Part shown: positions 1-13,967 of the stretch, one piece after another
Numbering within the stretch: position 1 is the first letter of the stretch
How the letters are laid out: each line of letters opens with the position of its first letter
IMG/VR virus record: IMGVR_UViG_2671180846_000020
DNA from: a virus
Lineage: Duplodnaviria; Heunggongvirae; Uroviricota; Caudoviricetes
Strand: one strand, 5' to 3'
Length of the DNA stretch: 29,281 nucleotides
Notes under the pieces: model-generated
Told to the model about the DNA's origin: nothing
What the model saw: the letters and a program-made list of their open reading frames with translations, nothing else
Databases searched by the model: none
Translations under genes and position numbers: made by a program

Positions 1-230
1 TGTCACTTAAGCGTATGGTCAACCTGACAACCCGGTGTCCTCAACGGGGAAGGAATAACCCCGCCATACTTACCGCCGCGCCATTTTGCGGGTTGCCACA
101 ACCGGAAGCGCACGGTCGAATTAAATTTAACGACACCGTACAGTGAGACGAACTTCGCCGTGCGCTTTCGTGTTGTGTGCCTGCTTTTAACCACGTCAGG
201 CGAGGTGGTATCCTTAAAATCACCACAGTT

Positions 231-806
231 TTAAGGATTCATTAAGCAATGTCGCAACCACCAATAAATCCGCTTAAGAACATGAAAATTGATTACTGGT
301 ATAAAGCGCTTACAGTTGTTGGCGCTGCGTTGTTTGTCTTTAATGGAACGTCTTTTTTTGACAGATATCCCGTTGTTCCATTGGGTTTTTTGTCCTCCGG
401 CATCTTTTTTATTGGTTTGGGGGAGTGGATTAATCACCCTCTCATAGTGAGATTTATTGGTCCTGGAGTTTGGACTCGTGGATATAATCGTTCTTCGTGC
501 GCACTCGGTATCATCTTCGACATACTTGGTTGTTTCCTGATTGTTACAGGAGTCGTCAAGTTCTTCTGATGTAAAACCGCAAATGGGGCACGTAACGGGA
601 ATTTTGAAAAGCGTTTCTCCGGGTTCCAGAACAAAATTTTCTGCGGTCTGATTTTGCTTCTCATATTTGTGCTCCGCGTCATTGTGAGAGCACATTCTTA
701 TTCTGAGTGCCTGTTTAAACTCACTGAAGCTGAGAGCTTCTTCGCCTTCGGCAAGGCCTTCGAAGTATTCTTCGTAAGCCTTTTCCATGATTGTGTTGAA
801 ATCCAT
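231..806 (-). CDS. hypothetical leftward early protein (YdaG-like N-terminus), possibly extended by read-through
   Basis: Start MDFNTIMEKAYEEYFEG at 806 with AGGTGA SD 5 nt upstream, immediately after the stop of the upstream 51-aa gene (operon-like packing). The N-terminal ~90 aa are acidic and protein-like; the C-terminal part is K/N/R-rich and is antisense to the 3-TM ORF, so the true 3' end is uncertain. Confidence 0.4.
   Translation of the reverse strand: MDFNTIMEKAYEEYFEGLAEGEEALSFSEFKQALRIRMCSHNDAEHKYEKQNQTAENFVLEPGETLFKIPVTCPICGFTSEELDDSCNNQETTKYVEDDTECARRTIISTSPNSRTNKSHYERVINPLPQTNKKDAGGQKTQWNNGISVKKRRSIKDKQRSANNCKRFIPVINFHVLKRIYWWLRHCLMNP
249..569 (+). CDS. small putative membrane protein (three predicted TM helices)
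   Basis: ORF of 106 aa with three hydrophobic stretches of about 18-20 residues separated by charged loops; AAGGA Shine-Dalgarno about 10 nt upstream of the ATG. It overlaps a minus-strand ORF antisense, so only one of the two may be real in the overlap. Confidence 0.4.
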   Translation: MSQPPINPLKNMKIDYWYKALTVVGAALFVFNGTSFFDRYPVVPLGFLSSGIFFIGLGEWINHPLIVRFIGPGVWTRGYNRSSCALGIIFDILGCFLIVTGVVKFF

Positions 807-1640: not shown

Positions 1641-1868
1641 ATGTTTAAATCAGACGTAATTAATTTTTACGGTACGAAAGCCAAAGTAGCGAAAGCTGCT
1701 GGCGTTGACCCATCTGCTGTTTCTCAATGGCAAGAGCTGGTTCCTGAAGGTCGCGCGATGCGTCTACAGGAGGCATCTGGCGGCGAGCTTCTGTATGATC
1801 CCAAGGTTTATGACGAATATCGTAAGACGAAGCGGGCGGGGCGGTTGAACAATGAAAATCACTCCTGA
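1641..1868 (+). CDS. Cro-like / YdaS-family HTH regulator
   Basis: 75-aa protein with the motif KAKVAKAAGVDPSAVSQWQ typical of Cro/YdaS-type small DNA-binding proteins; divergent from the repressor and first gene of the rightward operon. Confidence 0.65.
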   Translation: MFKSDVINFYGTKAKVAKAAGVDPSAVSQWQELVPEGRAMRLQEASGGELLYDPKVYDEYRKTKRAGRLNNENHS

Positions 1869-2373
1869 ACAGGCTCGTGAGGCTCTGGATGCCTGGATAT
1901 GTCGACCAGGAATGACACAGGAGCAGGCGACGATATTAATCACTGAAGCATTCTGGGCTTTGAAAGAGCGCCCGAACATCGATGTTCAGCGTGTCACAGA
2001 TGAAGGTGGCGCGGTTGATCAGCGAGCACTTGGCGTTAATCGAGTGAAGATATTCGAACGCTGGAAGGCTATCGACACCAGGGATAAGCGTGAAAAGTTC
2101 ACGGCGCTAGTGCCTGCAATTATGGAGGCTATTCGGATTAATGATTTCAGGTTGTATCGTGAAATTAGTGACGGAAAAAGCATCACGTACATGATCGCCG
2201 GGTTAAACAAAGAATATGGCGATGTGGTGGAGTCCGGACTGCTTTTTGCTGATCCTGCCGTAGTGGATCGTGAAACTGACGAACTTATAGAAAAAGCAAT
2301 TGCTTTCAAACTTGCGTATCGACAGCAATACCAACAAAAAGCTGGATGGAATTATGAGCCTTCTTTTTGCTGA
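1852..2373 (+). CDS. YdaT-like protein (position-based), function uncertain
   Basis: 173-aa ORF overlapping the Cro-like stop and followed by the replication initiator, the position YdaT occupies in Rac-type prophages. The family assignment is not verified by alignment. Confidence 0.55.
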   Translation: MKITPEQAREALDAWICRPGMTQEQATILITEAFWALKERPNIDVQRVTDEGGAVDQRALGVNRVKIFERWKAIDTRDKREKFTALVPAIMEAIRINDFRLYREISDGKSITYMIAGLNKEYGDVVESGLLFADPAVVDRETDELIEKAIAFKLAYRQQYQQKAGWNYEPSFC

Positions 2374-7916: not shown

Positions 7917-8966
7917 GTGCGGGTATTACTTAGACCTGTTCTGGTGCCTGAGCTTGGGCTGGTGGTCCTTAAGCCGGGCCGTGAATCCATACAGATATTT
8001 CATAATCCTCGAGTGCTGGTGGAACCGGAACCAAAAAGCATGCGTAATCTGCCATCCGGAGTCGTTCCTGCCGTTCGCCAGCCGCTGGCGGAAGACAAAA
8101 CATTGCTGCCGTTTTTTAGTAACGAACGGGTGATTCGTGCTGCTGGCGGCGTTGGCGCATTGTCCGACTGGCTATTACGTCATGTTACATCCTGCCAGTG
8201 GCCTAATGGCGATTACCATCACACTGAAACAGTCATTCACCGTTATGGTACCGGCGCAATGGTGTTGTGCTGGCACTGCGACAACCAACTGCGTGACCAG
8301 ACATCGGAATCACTGGAGCTGCTTGCTCAACAAAATCTGACAGCATGGGTGATTGACGTCATCCGTCACGCAATAAGCGGTACGCAGGAGCGGGAATTAT
8401 CTTTGGCTGAATTATCCTGGTGGGCGGTCTGCAATCAGGTGGTGGATGCACTACCTGAGGCTGTATCGCGTCGTTCGCTGGGATTACCAGCGGAAAAAAT
8501 CTGCTCGGTGTACCGCGAAAGCGACATCGTACCGGGAGAGCAGACCGCCACCAGCATATTGAAACAACGCACAAAAAATCTTGCACCGTTGCCTTACGCC
8601 CACCAGCAACAAAAATCACCACAGGAAAAGACGGTGGTAAGCATCACCGTTGATCCAGAGTCTCCGGAATCTTTCATGAAGCTGCCTAAACGTCGCCGCT
8701 GGGTTAAGGAGAAATACACACGTTGGGTTAAGACACAGCCGTGTGCTTGCTGCGGTATGCCAGCCGACGATCCGCATCATCTGATTGGTCACGGGCAGGG
8801 CGGAATGGGAACAAAAGCACATGATCTCTTTGTGTTGCCTTTGTGCAGAAAGCATCACAACGAGCTGCATACGGATACAGTGGCATTTGAAGATAAGTAT
8901 GGCTCCCAACTGGAGCTGATATTTCGTTTTATCGATCGCGCGCTGGCAATTGGCGTACTGGCGTAA
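7917..8966 (+). CDS. DUF968-type protein with C-terminal HNH-like zinc motif (YdfU-like)
   Basis: A GTG start at 7917 gives 349 aa. The C-terminus carries QPCACCGMPADDPHHLIGHGQGG ... LPLCRKHHNELH, an HNH-nuclease-like Cys/His arrangement, and there is a second CxxC (CWHC) earlier. Confidence 0.65.
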   Translation: MRVLLRPVLVPELGLVVLKPGRESIQIFHNPRVLVEPEPKSMRNLPSGVVPAVRQPLAEDKTLLPFFSNERVIRAAGGVGALSDWLLRHVTSCQWPNGDYHHTETVIHRYGTGAMVLCWHCDNQLRDQTSESLELLAQQNLTAWVIDVIRHAISGTQERELSLAELSWWAVCNQVVDALPEAVSRRSLGLPAEKICSVYRESDIVPGEQTATSILKQRTKNLAPLPYAHQQQKSPQEKTVVSITVDPESPESFMKLPKRRRWVKEKYTRWVKTQPCACCGMPADDPHHLIGHGQGGMGTKAHDLFVLPLCRKHHNELHTDTVAFEDKYGSQLELIFRFIDRALAIGVLA

Positions 8967-8979
8967 GTGGAGAACGAGC

Positions 8980-9732
8980 ATGAACCTTGAAGCCTTACCA
9001 AAATATTACTCCCCAAAATCTCCAAAATTGAGCGATGACGCTCCAGCGACAGGCACCGGTTGTTTAACAATTACGGATGTAATGGCAGCGCAGGGGATGG
9101 TGCAGTCGAAAGCACCACTTGGGTTGGCCTTATTTCTGGCAAAAGTTGGTGTTCAGGACCCTCAGTTTGCGATTGAAGGCCTGCTAAATTACGCGATGGC
9201 ACTGGATAACCCGACATTGAACAAATTGAGTGAAGAAATCCGGTTACAGATTATTCCTTACCTCGTGAATTTTGCCTTTGCTGATTACTCCAGGTCTGCG
9301 GCAAGTAAGGCTCGCTGTGAGCATTGTTCAGGTACGGGATTTTATAATGTATTGCGCGAAGTGGTGAAACACTACCGACGCGGGGAATCTGTAATCAAGG
9401 AAGAATGGGTGAAGGAACTATGTCAGCATTGCCATGGTAAGGGTGAAGTCAGCACAGCGTGCAGAGGGTGTAAGGGTAAAGGGATTGTTCTGGATGAAAA
9501 AAGAACCCGGTTTCATGGCGTACCGGTATATAAGATTTGTGGGCGTTGTAATGGAAACCGGTTTAGTCGTTTACCGACCACGCTGGCACGACGTCATGTC
9601 CAGAAGCTGGTACCAGACCTGACCGATTATCAGTGGTATAAGGGGTATGCGGACGTCATTGGTAAACTGGTAACAAAGTGCTGGCAGGAAGAAGCATACG
9701 CGGAAGCGCAATTGAGGAAGGTGACGAGATAA
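8980..9732 (+). CDS. late-gene antiterminator Q (phage 82/21 type)
   Basis: Positioned just upstream of a terminator and the lysis genes, with multiple CxxC zinc-binding pairs (CEHCSG, CQHCHG, CRGCKG, CGRCNG). Start taken at MNLEALPKYY. Confidence 0.7.
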   Translation: MNLEALPKYYSPKSPKLSDDAPATGTGCLTITDVMAAQGMVQSKAPLGLALFLAKVGVQDPQFAIEGLLNYAMALDNPTLNKLSEEIRLQIIPYLVNFAFADYSRSAASKARCEHCSGTGFYNVLREVVKHYRRGESVIKEEWVKELCQHCHGKGEVSTACRGCKGKGIVLDEKRTRFHGVPVYKICGRCNGNRFSRLPTTLARRHVQKLVPDLTDYQWYKGYADVIGKLVTKCWQEEAYAEAQLRKVTR

Positions 9733-9837: not shown

Positions 9838-9868
9838 AAAACCCGCTGATGAGCGGGTTTTGTGCTTT
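9838..9868 (+). terminator. rho-independent terminator downstream of Q (tR'-like)
   Basis: Hairpin CCCGCT-GATG-AGCGGG followed by TTTTGTGCTTT, about 105 nt after the Q stop. Confidence 0.6.
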
Positions 9869-10153: not shown

Positions 10154-10366
10154 TCATGAAAGGTAAACATTGGCAGCTGAAGGGCCACGCAGACCATTTA
10201 TCCGGCAAAATTCCACGCGTAATCCGGTGGTAATTTCTTCTGCATCGCGGAGATTGAGCGCTGAAACATGAAGCTGGACATCGATACGACCATCGGATGG
10301 GGTGATAAGACCCTTGCCGCTTTTGCCGTCAAAGGTTTTGACAATTCCTGTCATTTTACGGGACAA
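10154..10366 (-). CDS. cspF: cold-shock-domain protein (CspF/CspH-like)
   Basis: 70-aa cold-shock-domain protein [26 protein letters not shown]..., divergent from the cspB-like gene. Confidence 0.75.
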
Positions 10367-10666
10367 AAAAATTCCTTAATACTGATAACTTGGCGCACTA
10401 TACACACGTTCCTGAAGAAAGCTATAGTTTTTTGATGGGGTTGAAGATGGCTGGATGTCTAAAATAAACATTGCTTCATATGTTCAACTATGCGTTAATG
10501 ATTGCGTCGGTTTGAAGAACAGACGATATACGAAGTAGTTTACTAAAGCAGTTCTCATTTCAGGTGTTATTCACTTATTCCTTCTTTGAGTCTCTCCAAT
10601 TAAGTACGAAGTCGTTTCTGTTATGCAAACCATTTATGCCGAAAGGCTCAAGTTAAGGAATGTAGA

Positions 10667-10882
10667 ATGTCAAATAAAATGACTGGTTTAGTAAAATGGT
10701 TTAACGCTGATAAAGGTTTCGGCTTTATTTCTCCTGTTGATGGTAGTAAAGATGTGTTTGTGCATTTTTCTGCGATTCAGAATGATAATTATCGAACCTT
10801 ATTTGAAGGTCAAAAGGTTACCTTCTCTATAGAGAGAGGTGCTAAAGGTCCTGCAGCAGCAAATGTCATCATTACTGATTAA
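10667..10882 (+). CDS. cspB: cold shock protein CspB-like
   Basis: 71-aa protein [38 protein letters not shown]... with the RNP motifs of CspA-family proteins; long upstream leader. Confidence 0.8.
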
Positions 10883-11163
10883 AATTCATCGCTCGTCTGT
10901 ATACGATAACGAAGAAGGCTGATGCCTGAGTAGAGATACGGACAGAGTAGTGAATATTGGATCTCTTTAATAAAAAGTAAGGAGGTCCAATACATGAAAC
11001 AATGGCTAGCATATTTGGCAAAATCTTAATCAGGAAAAGTATGCTAACCATTGTGGTGAAGTGCAGGTTTGCTGCATGAATAGTTTCACAGCAGAAGCTA
11101 ACTGCTGGCATCGCAAAACAAAGTGCGTAAGTGGATGACTCCCACAAAAAGCACCACAATCTC

Positions 11164-11190
11164 AAACCCGCTCAGGCGGGTTTTTTATTA
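11164..11190 (+). terminator. rho-independent terminator
   Basis: Hairpin CCCGC-TCAG-GCGGG followed by TTTTTTATT, about 280 nt downstream of the cspB stop. Confidence 0.55.
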
Positions 11191-11245
11191 TCTGCTTTAA
11201 ATATATTATTAAAATATAAAAAATACTTGTTACTAATAAAATCAA

Positions 11246-11416
11246 TCAGGCTACAGCTTTAAGATTTGTCTGGAATACTTTGTTGCAATGAGGGCAGATC
11301 AAAAGGGCACCTTTTTGTACTCTTGAAAAACTGTGTTCTGACTCTTGGGTGCAGTTTGGGCAGGAACATTTAACGAGATAATTACGGCGTGATTTTGAGT
11401 CTTTACGTTCTGACAT
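11246..11416 (-). CDS. small zinc-ribbon protein, 56 aa (absent from the ORF track)
   Basis: Read directly from the minus strand: MSERKDSKSRRNYLVKCSCPNCTQESEHSFSRVQKGALLICPHCNKVFQTNLKAVA, with two Cys pairs (CSCPNC, CPHC) and an AGGAAAA SD upstream of the ATG. Confidence 0.45.
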   Translation of the reverse strand: MSERKDSKSRRNYLVKCSCPNCTQESEHSFSRVQKGALLICPHCNKVFQTNLKAVA

Positions 11417-11635
11417 AGGCTTTTCCTGTATAATGGCCGTATACAGTACACTAAATATGAAAACATTTCTCGTATTATTATTTTATATATGACTTTCTTT
11501 CAAAATAATTACTCACATTTTTAATGTGTATGTTTCTTTAGCGCCGTTGAGAACAACGTGTGCTGTCAAAACTACCCCGTAGACTCCGATCTTTTTCAAA
11601 CATATTGCACCATCCGTGTACATCGGGGTGAGGAT

Positions 11636-13191: not shown

Positions 13192-13553
13192 GGTAATATT
13201 AAATCGGAACATTTACATCGCGGAATGTAAAATTTAAATAAAAAGGACTCTTCCATGAGCCAAAATTCCTGAAATCTTAAGGGTAAGATAAAAGGTCTTA
13301 ATCAGAATGACACGTTTTATTAATAAATAAAGCTATTCTTTCATTGCTGTGTTTTTCTTTACAAAAGTAATCCTTGCTATGGGTGGTTAATCATGCGTTA
13401 ATGGTGTTCTGGTTTGTTACAAATTTATCTGAAGCAGTCATTGTTATAATTTTATTATTTGTACCTCTTGAGATTTCCTTGTTGGTTTTTCTCTCTGATA
13501 TTTTTTTTCGGACCATTCTGCCCAAGGGCTAATTTCTTCAAAAGGTAATAATT

Positions 13554-13766
13554 ATGTCTAACAAAATGACTGGTTTAGTGAAATGGTTTAACCCTGAAAA
13601 AGGTTTTGGTTTCATCACGCCGAAAGATGGCAGCAAAGATGTGTTTGTCCATTTCTCAGCAATTCAGAGCAACGATTTCAAAACATTAACTGAGAATCAG
13701 GAAGTTGAATTTGGTATTGAGAACGGACCTAAAGGTCCTGCCGCTGTTCATGTAGTGGCGCTTTGA
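13554..13766 (+). CDS. cspI: cold shock protein CspI-like
   Basis: 70-aa protein [70 protein letters not shown]; long AT-rich leader upstream. Confidence 0.85.
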
Positions 13767-13967
13767 GGTAGACAATATTACAAACCATATTCACTTTAGA
13801 TGCCCGTGTTGTCATGGTTCCCAGTATAGAACATCATCTTTTGATGTTTCTGACATGAATCCTTTCGGGGCAAAATGTATCTTTTGTAAATCAATGATGA
13901 TTACATTTGATAATATTTCACAATACTTAAATGCCAGCCGTCTGTCGTTGGATTTAAAAAAGTGAAA

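Follow-up and report, generated by a model that had tools for sequence, protein, structure and literature searches.

A conserved multi-domain structured RNA in the cspB 3′ untranslated region of Enterobacteriaceae

The cspB locus and its structured RNA

We analysed a 29,281-nucleotide stretch of viral DNA (IMG/VR record IMGVR_UViG_2671180846_000020), referred to below as the window, with respect to the interval 10883–11190 between the stop codon of cspB and its terminator. The window is a Qin-type lambdoid prophage of Escherichia coli; its positions 10600–11500 are 100% identical to O26:H11 strain 11368, and the interval shares 99.4% identity (2 mismatches) with E. coli K-12 MG1655. The cspB coding sequence occupies 10667–10882 on the plus strand (stop codon 10880–10882), and the distance from the stop codon to the terminator is 281 nucleotides (nt). 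An intrinsic-terminator-like hairpin with a U-tract, reported already in a first-pass annotation made from the sequence alone, is indeed present at the end of the region (11164–11190, plus strand; hairpin 11164–11183 with a T-run behind it). Beyond it lies ynfU (11246–11416, minus strand), which encodes a zinc-ribbon small protein of 56 amino acids (aa) and is convergent with cspB; the K-12 RefSeq record carries no annotation between the two genes. The interval is filled by a conserved, covarying, plus-strand structured RNA, which consists of separable modules and is tied in cis to cspB-type genes. The 281-nt interval is best explained as a non-coding, multi-domain structured 3′ untranslated region (UTR), in which a clade-specific hairpin (D2) joins the hairpin module D1 to a module made of the long hairpin P0 and a four-way junction. 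The interval 10883–11190 as a whole folds at z = -8.27 against dinucleotide shuffles, and no promoter-like site was found on the plus strand of 10430–11480, hence none between cspB and the RNA element.

P0 is a long hairpin at 10999–11054 on the plus strand, as are all elements of the RNA (10999–11013 paired with 11040–11054). The four-way junction (11050–11160) stands directly before the terminator; in it, P1 (11050–11058 with 11152–11160) closes P2 (11061–11066 with 11072–11077), P3 (11089–11094 with 11102–11107, with the 7-nt loop AAGCUAA at 11095–11101) and P5 (11131–11134 with 11142–11145), and a conserved joiner, AAAGUGCGUAAG, is found at 11120–11131. The five helices were tested for covariation in a MAFFT alignment of 21 sequences, in which standard pairs make up 95.5% of the cells and compensatory double changes occur at 12 pairs. 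On four of five measures none of 500 column shuffles reached the observed value, and one reached the count of further pair types; when the partners were slid by 1–3 columns, pairing fell to 23–57%. P1 alone contains four covarying pairs (e.g. G-C/A-U in columns 102:202 and U-A/C-G in columns 103:201). A covariance model built from 16 sequences (R1) has its sole match in the window at 10997–11162 (148.7 bits). R1 also recovered a diverged clade (loci L214 and L216–L225, 48–63 bits), in which P0, P1, P2 and P5 are kept, P3 is mostly absent and the joiner reads ACGCAAG vs GCGUAAG; the enlarged alignment has 93.9% pairing and 13 compensatory pairs. At one locus of Raoultella lignicola (L019:4462–4656) the joiner between P2 and P3 is expanded to 8 tandem copies of CCTGAAAG, which suggests that this joiner tolerates large insertions.

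Many of the pairs are G-U pairs, and the functional strand is therefore the cspB sense strand. This bears on the idea that a protein gene on the minus strand, an open reading frame (ORF) of 97 aa at 10872–11165, underlies the conservation. Long stop-free frames do run over most of the element in many clades, and such a frame is annotated as a coding sequence (‘hypothetical protein’) in the phages HannyBb and PhiR63_1. We nevertheless rule such a gene out, and give it hardly any credence, on the absence of codon periodicity (75, 70 and 67 substitutions at codon positions 1, 2 and 3) and on a frame that depends on the clade, homologous peptide segments being frame-shifted by indels of 1–2 nt. 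Moreover, the G-U pairs would become A-C mismatches on that strand, and the 97-aa ORF starts inside the ynfU terminator.

The P0 and P1 helices share a segment. The sequence ACAAU occurs twice, at the 5′ end of P0 (10999–11003) and at the 3′ end of P1 (11156–11160), and either copy pairs with AUUGU at 11050–11054, so that the lowest 5 bp of the two helices compete in a strand exchange; both pairings covary across clades. The predicted energy difference between the P0-extended and the P1-extended conformers is about 0.4–0.6 kcal/mol from 10 to 42 °C. A temperature switch between the two conformers was considered and rejected, the predicted gap showing no temperature dependence.

D1 is a hairpin located directly after the cspB stop codon (10892–10946), with an outer stem formed by 10895–10902 and 10936–10943 and an inner hairpin at 10916–10927. 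Compensatory changes are found in 8 of the 9 pairs of the outer stem, and 84% of the cells are paired, vs 25–44% when the strands are slid. Enclosed by the outer stem, together with the small covarying hairpin, is an asymmetric, purine-rich and nearly invariant internal loop (CGA(A/U)GA opposite UGAGUAGA); in the window it comprises C10910, GAA (10911–10913) and GA (10914–10915) opposite GA (10928–10929) and G10930. The C-G pair, the 3-nt bulge and the tandem G-A/A-G pairs by the helix (CGAAGA / UGAG) resemble a kink-turn (k-turn), whose canonical stem would here be only 2 bp long, while AGUA opposite GAA resembles a loop-E or bulged-G (sarcin-ricin-like) motif. The loop thus appears k-turn-like or loop-E-like, both registers fitting equally, and these cannot be told apart because the key bases of D1 do not vary. 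A second covariance model (R2) matches D1 in the window with 68.8 bits.

Comparison with Rfam 15 (4227 families) returned a single family above its gathering threshold, the cspA thermoregulator RF01766, which lies upstream (10506–10898) and covers the cspB 5′ UTR and coding sequence; neither the window nor any of six diverged loci has such a match over the element. Below threshold, Trp_leader (RF00513, 23.8 bits vs a gathering threshold of 41) matches 11100–11189 and isrK (RF01394, 17.9 vs 50) matches 11108–11186; these and a sub-threshold P9 match are all explained by the terminator hairpin. Two further candidates were rejected. A tRNA- or tmRNA-like fold is not indicated by ARAGORN, which finds 0 genes in 10800–11300, and a degenerate ymcF/ynfQ pseudogene with Cys-rich frames is not compatible with frames that are not conserved and with the lack of R1 matches in cspI and cspG loci. 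RNAduplex predictions between the cspB 5′ UTR and 3′ UTR gave unconstrained global duplexes, which are uninformative on pairing.

Distribution, linkage to cspB and modularity

The interval is found by BLAST in 1716 of 5426 complete E. coli genomes, usually in one copy each, and at 76–82% identity in two unrelated contexts, the phage-plasmid Cyrano and the record PHB10, where a cspB-like gene precedes it in both cases. Scanning with a two-anchor pattern yielded 28 loci in about 10 genera (Kosakonia, Enterobacter, Phytobacter, Kluyvera, Superficieibacter, Pseudescherichia, Raoultella, Leclercia, Atlantibacter and Escherichia/Shigella), as well as more than 120 viral contigs. At every one of the scan loci the element stands directly behind a cspB-type gene. 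As a rule a cspF-type gene lies divergently to this gene, and downstream there is often a ynfU homologue in convergent orientation together with a ynfN-like ORF of 75 aa, ynfU not always being present. Metagenome loci were fetched through the CspF protein, so that their ascertainment is independent of the RNA; here too the element is present in all untruncated cspB-type loci except L212 and L226. R1 detects no element in cspH-cspG-ymcF loci, nor at cspI in the window, and R2 finds exactly one D1 per cspB-type locus, with none in cspH-cspG or cspG-type loci and none in loci of the Enterobacter/PHB10 type. The structured RNA travels with cspB-type genes on prophages, phage-plasmids and chromosomal islands of Enterobacteriaceae.

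The two modules can also occur without each other. L212 and L226 have kept D1 and lost the junction, and loci of the Enterobacter/PHB10 type have kept P0 and the junction and lack D1; D1 and the junction are therefore separable modules. L212 (about 1700–1975, minus strand) and L226 (about 100–290, minus strand) are natural deletions that have removed D2, P0 and most of the junction, the L212 remnant containing, besides D1, only P5, the P1 3′ strand and the terminator.

Several observations concern the island around the element. In Cyrano (OV696614; L003:2630–2845) the deposited record leaves unannotated a complete cspB-like gene with its structured 3′ UTR; the gene has a cspA-type 5′ UTR (RF01766, 187.6 bits) and sits between hicAB and a convergent dnaE. 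Downstream of the cspB-RNA-ynfU module, at a distance of a few hundred bases, two loci from different genera have matches to the Rfam small RNA (sRNA) family STnc100 (L012:2941–3070, 68.4 bits; L004:4288–4489, 52.7 bits), which hints that the island carries further non-coding RNAs. A conserved 75-aa ORF (MxKVxVFFNxxxCKV...SAGFPSLTGDH...), probably YnfN-like, is found on the same strand about 130–540 nt downstream of the element in many loci outside E. coli (L008, L015, L024, L026, L033 and others), some of them without an intervening terminator. In the diverged clade (L219:3118–3414) the cspF-cspB-RNA-ynfU island adjoins three tRNA genes and pgsA-uvrC, a typical integration hot-spot, which is consistent with a mobile module.

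Other genes near the interval in the window are the Q antiterminator gene (8950–9732, plus strand), cspF (10154–10366, minus strand), and the holin and lysis genes from about 11637 (plus strand). About 100 nt downstream of the Q gene there is a palindromic terminator hairpin (9838–9865); a K-12 Term-seq 3′ end at MG1655 1642356 corresponds to window 9865 on the window plus strand (55k–123k reads in the published table), and together they look like the short constitutive pR′-tR′ late-leader transcript of a lambdoid prophage. The hairpin at 11161–11183 serves cspB and, on the opposite strand, the convergent ynfU. The Term-seq table of Adams et al. (2021; PMC7815308) gives the 3′ end of the ynfU transcript at MG1655 1641060 (plus strand, about 1000 reads), at the cspB terminator hairpin, which is therefore a bidirectional terminator common to two small cold-shock-island genes. 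A second cspA-type thermoregulator match (13408–13793, 112.8 bits) marks cspI of the same prophage, downstream of which ynfQ/ynfR-type small ORFs take the place of the structured RNA and R1 has no match.

Another conceivable role is read-through control, in which the structure, perhaps by way of the P0/P1 strand exchange or of melting by Csp proteins, would set the extent of transcription beyond cspB, either into the ynfN-like 75-aa gene of terminator-less genomes or as antisense transcription through ynfU. CspA-family proteins are transcription antiterminators, which suits this idea, as do the 5-nt segment that pairs with the P0 5′ end or the P1 3′ end, with covariation of both pairings, and the 75-aa ORF that in Enterobacter BIGb, Atlantibacter and Pseudescherichia starts about 55–70 nt behind the element on the same strand, the two not being separated by a canonical terminator. 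However, the alternative pairings leave the terminator hairpin uninvolved and have predicted energies that are about equal at all temperatures between 10 and 42 °C, and a strong terminator and a convergent gene stand behind the element in E. coli, Cyrano, L133, L012 and the L214-type clades. We therefore regard read-through control as improbable.

Hairpin D2, the abundant RNA 3′ end and the SD-like sequence

Between D1 and P0 the window has the 15-bp hairpin D2 (10955–10992, plus strand; 10955–10969 paired with 10978–10992), with a predicted energy of -18.3 kcal/mol and z = -6.3. Its 3′ strand (10978–10992) is purine-rich and contains TAAGGAGGT, the sequence in which the first-pass annotation had seen a near-perfect Shine–Dalgarno (SD) motif. 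A hairpin occupies the D2 position in every clade with a different sequence (e.g. strands GGAUCAGUA/UACUGAUCC in the L214 type and UUAGCAUGG/CCAUGCUAA in Cyrano); the SD is found only in the clade of the window.

D2 directly precedes RNA 3′ ends that have been mapped in K-12 by Term-seq (Adams et al. 2021, PMC7815308), in whose table the 3′ end is the 51st base of the printed sequence. For conversion, the window coordinate was subtracted from 1652221 to give the MG1655 coordinate (minus strand), as verified on the cspB start codon (window 10667, MG1655 1641554). The ends at MG1655 1641226 and 1641224 (minus strand) correspond to window 10995 and 10997 (plus strand), 3 and 5 nt beyond the base of D2. 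According to Supplementary file 1 of that paper, the average reads are 604,404 at 1641226 (LB at an optical density (OD) of 0.4), and 1,233,565 (LB OD 2.0) and 2,464,295 (M63) at 1641224, and all three minus-strand ends are classed as ‘orphan’. Typical values among the entries examined in the same table are 10^3 to 10^5, with 976,436 for the sroA 3′ end and 3.5 million for a tRNA 3′ end. Going by this table the cspB read counts are comparable to those of sroA and tRNA, and the end is thus that of a very abundant RNA. No U-tract follows the D2 hairpin and the terminator scan did not flag it; we therefore infer processing and exonuclease stalling over intrinsic termination.

The mapped ends also bear on coding. 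The first-pass annotation had described an SD at 10978–10986, an 11-codon ORF behind it and a second ORF of 12 codons, had judged the SD unlikely to be accidental, and had proposed a micro-protein, a translated leader or attenuator, or the body of a 3′-UTR-derived sRNA. The sequence features themselves were confirmed: the SD-like TAAGGAGGT lies where it was placed (AGGAGG at 10980–10985), 8 nt separate AGGAGG from the ATG, a functional spacing, and both the ORF of 11 sense codons (10994–11029, plus strand; ATG AAA CAA TGG CTA GCA TAT TTG GCA AAA TCT TAA, encoding MKQWLAYLAKS) and the ATG ORF of 12 sense codons (11041–11079, plus strand) are present. The first overlaps the 5′ strand and loop of P0; the second runs across P1, P2 and the 3′ strand of P0 in a frame that homologues do not preserve. 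That the SD could hardly be accidental was an overstatement. AGGAGG followed by ATG after 4–9 nt occurs 4 times in the window vs 1.2 expected from shuffles (6 of 100 shuffles reach 4), and TAAGGAGGT with at most one mismatch occurs 7 times vs 3.9 expected; in addition, the purine run has a structural cause, since it is one strand of the 15-bp hairpin D2.

That the SD and ATG give rise to the 11-aa micro-protein, or to a regulatory leader that remodels the RNA on being translated, is very improbable in our judgement. A consensus SD at 8-nt spacing, a start codon that lies unpaired, 2 nt past the D2 stem in the short linker to P0, and the expectation that a ribosome at the mini-ORF would open P0 are in its favour, but the SD is locked in the 15-bp stem, completely paired opposite UCUCUU, and so does not offer an accessible ribosome-binding site. 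Conservation of the SD and mini-ORF in homologous loci, proposed by the first-pass annotation as a check, was not found. An SD-like motif with a start codon at or upstream of P0 occurs only in the window and its >94%-identical relatives and is missing from all diverged homologues (Cyrano, vir_L133, Superficieibacter, Enterobacter/PHB10, Kosakonia, Kluyvera and the L214–L225 clade), the lone further match being a weak AGGA-TTG in Cyrano, which opens a 6-codon ORF. Among 199 Qin-type copies there are six mini-ORF alleles, and all six variable sites change the peptide (W4stop, L5P, A9V, K10I, S11T and S11P; 0 synonymous); one allele is thus truncated by a stop at the fourth codon, and about half of the copies carry L5P. 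The commonest SD variant (GGAGG to GGAGA) weakens the SD and turns a G-U pair of D2 into an A-U pair. Term-seq of the K-12 locus, also proposed as a check, places the dominant 3′ ends in the published table at the U of the mini-ORF AUG (10995) and 2 nt later at 37 °C, so that the dominant RNA does not continue through the mini-ORF, although minor read-through RNA may exist beside it. As for a leader or attenuator, the position of the mini-ORF is 3′ of cspB, with a terminator and a convergent gene behind it, and MKQWLAYLAKS contains no codon runs. No paper describing a cspB 3′ UTR RNA or the 11-aa peptide was found, and the peptide string is absent from the literature searched. Neither a micro-protein nor a translated leader or attenuator is thus supported; we judge the 11-codon mini-ORF to be non-functional as a coding sequence, and the SD with this ORF is most likely a by-product of the conserved multi-domain folded RNA that fills the cspB 3′ UTR.

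Possible function and comparison with known systems

We consider it probable, with some reserve, that the element acts in cis in the processing and stability of the cspB mRNA. The 3′ UTR would thereby influence the fate of a cold-shock mRNA. The short single-stranded stretch that separates D2 from P0 would be cut by an endonuclease, after which a 3′ exonuclease would stall at D2 and leave the cspB mRNA, or a 3′ UTR fragment, capped by D1–D2. Stalling at D2 fits the data because a stable hairpin immediately precedes an abundant 3′ end without a U-tract. The second product would be an RNA of about 195 nt composed of P0, the junction and the terminator, which may be degraded or used as a separate non-coding RNA; it may be unstable at 37 °C and could matter mainly in the cold or in trans.

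The following points weigh against this reading. The published Term-seq table lists no minus-strand 3′ end at the terminator at 37 °C (PMC7815308) and has only the ynfU end of the other strand there, so that in this source there is no direct sign of the junction module accumulating as RNA under these conditions. The abundant RNA could be either a short stable D1–D2 fragment or the full-length mRNA. The conserved loops of the four-way junction suggest that it has a specific partner (a protein, an RNA or a ligand), and a plain stability element would leave this unexplained. Finally, the P3 loop and AAGUGCGUAAG are strictly invariant in most of the alignment, which is in part an artefact of ascertainment, because the search pattern required both; the CspF-anchored clade lacks P3 and has ACGCAAG.

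The same processed end bears on the proposal that the interval is the body of a 3′-UTR-derived sRNA. In such a case, cleavage at about 10996 would free the RNA of about 195 nt (P0, junction, and terminator with U-tail), which would bind Hfq or ProQ and regulate transcripts via the conserved single-stranded P3 loop AAGCUAA and AAAGUGCGUAAG. The proposal holds in part, in that the interval is a structured RNA that is conserved, shows covariation and has an end processed in vivo; action in trans we think rather unlikely. The element lies between a stop codon and an intrinsic terminator without a promoter of its own, a processing-type 3′ end lies exactly at the predicted 5′ boundary, conserved unpaired segments are present, and a terminator with a U-run is a typical chaperone-binding module. 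On the other hand, the lack of a listed same-strand peak at the terminator at 37 °C in the published table counts against it; tables based on RIL-seq have entries for the cspB coding sequence and for the region between cspF and cspB, and none for the cspB 3′ UTR; the Enterobacter, Kosakonia and Kluyvera clades have no canonical terminator behind the element; the candidate seed is variable, P3 being deleted in one clade; and the RNA was never found apart from cspB.

Beyond the cis processing and stability role, there is a tentative possibility that the cspB 3′ UTR represents an unrecognised, ornate RNA family, with its k-turn-like module, four-way junction and 5-nt strand-exchange switch, which serves as a specific cold-shock riboregulator. 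If so, it could bind a dedicated protein (e.g. the co-located CspF or YnfU) or another RNA, or it could act as a 3′-end switch between mRNA stabilisation and release of a trans-acting RNA; such a riboregulator would then exist in K-12 itself, at high abundance at 37 °C. The structured RNA family of the cspB 3′ UTR is apparently undescribed in the literature that we found. No genome has been searched more intensively for non-coding RNA than that of E. coli K-12, yet this interval of about 280 nt is unannotated in RefSeq, despite strong covariation for at least six helices and with none of the 4227 Rfam families matching it. In the published Term-seq tables examined, the cspB 3′ end is among the larger signals and is labelled only ‘orphan’. 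Since it travels with cspB-type genes, the element is a good candidate for an overlooked layer of 3′-end control of cold-shock mRNAs, complementing the known 5′ UTR thermosensors. For small-ORF searches, it shows that a textbook SD with an ATG can arise as a by-product of a purine-rich hairpin strand.

Among known systems, the cspA-family 5′ UTR thermosensor (RF01766) belongs to the same gene and is likewise a long, structured, covarying cold-shock UTR with possible alternative pairings. The cspB element differs from it in lying at the opposite end of the mRNA, in having no sequence or model similarity to it, and in a conformer equilibrium that is predicted to be independent of temperature. 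The 5′ UTR switches of cspB, cspG and cspI have been described (PMC13271884), and a recent structure-ensemble study (Incarnato 2025) covers, of cspB, the 5′ UTR only. With respect to Trp_leader attenuators and IsrK, the cspB 3′ UTR has neither regulatory codons nor downstream regulated genes and is a member of neither.

The 3′-UTR-derived, RNase-processed sRNAs of enterobacteria include CpxQ from cpxP and SroC from gltI. The element resembles sRNAs of this type in its location between a stop codon and an intrinsic terminator, its use of the parental promoter, its processing-type end in vivo and a conservation that is independent of the coding sequence. It is, however, larger and more ornate (about 280 nt, 5–7 helices, a four-way junction and a k-turn-like loop); its abundant end lies upstream of the junction and not at the terminator, which some clades lack; and no Hfq or ProQ partner or seed is evidenced for it.

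Protective mRNA 3′ ends (e.g. that of cspE, protected by ProQ) and stable decay fragments (e.g. decRNAs, PMC6156199) are the other group of interest. D2 is similar to these in being a hairpin right before an abundant 3′ end that has no U-tract, whereas the conservation at cspB extends to complex modules far beyond the blocking hairpin; cspB does not appear in the decRNA supplements (Dar and Sorek, PMC6156199). The systems closest in kind are thus the processed sRNAs derived from 3′ UTRs and the protective 3′-end structures of csp mRNAs, and the multi-domain form of the element differs from both.

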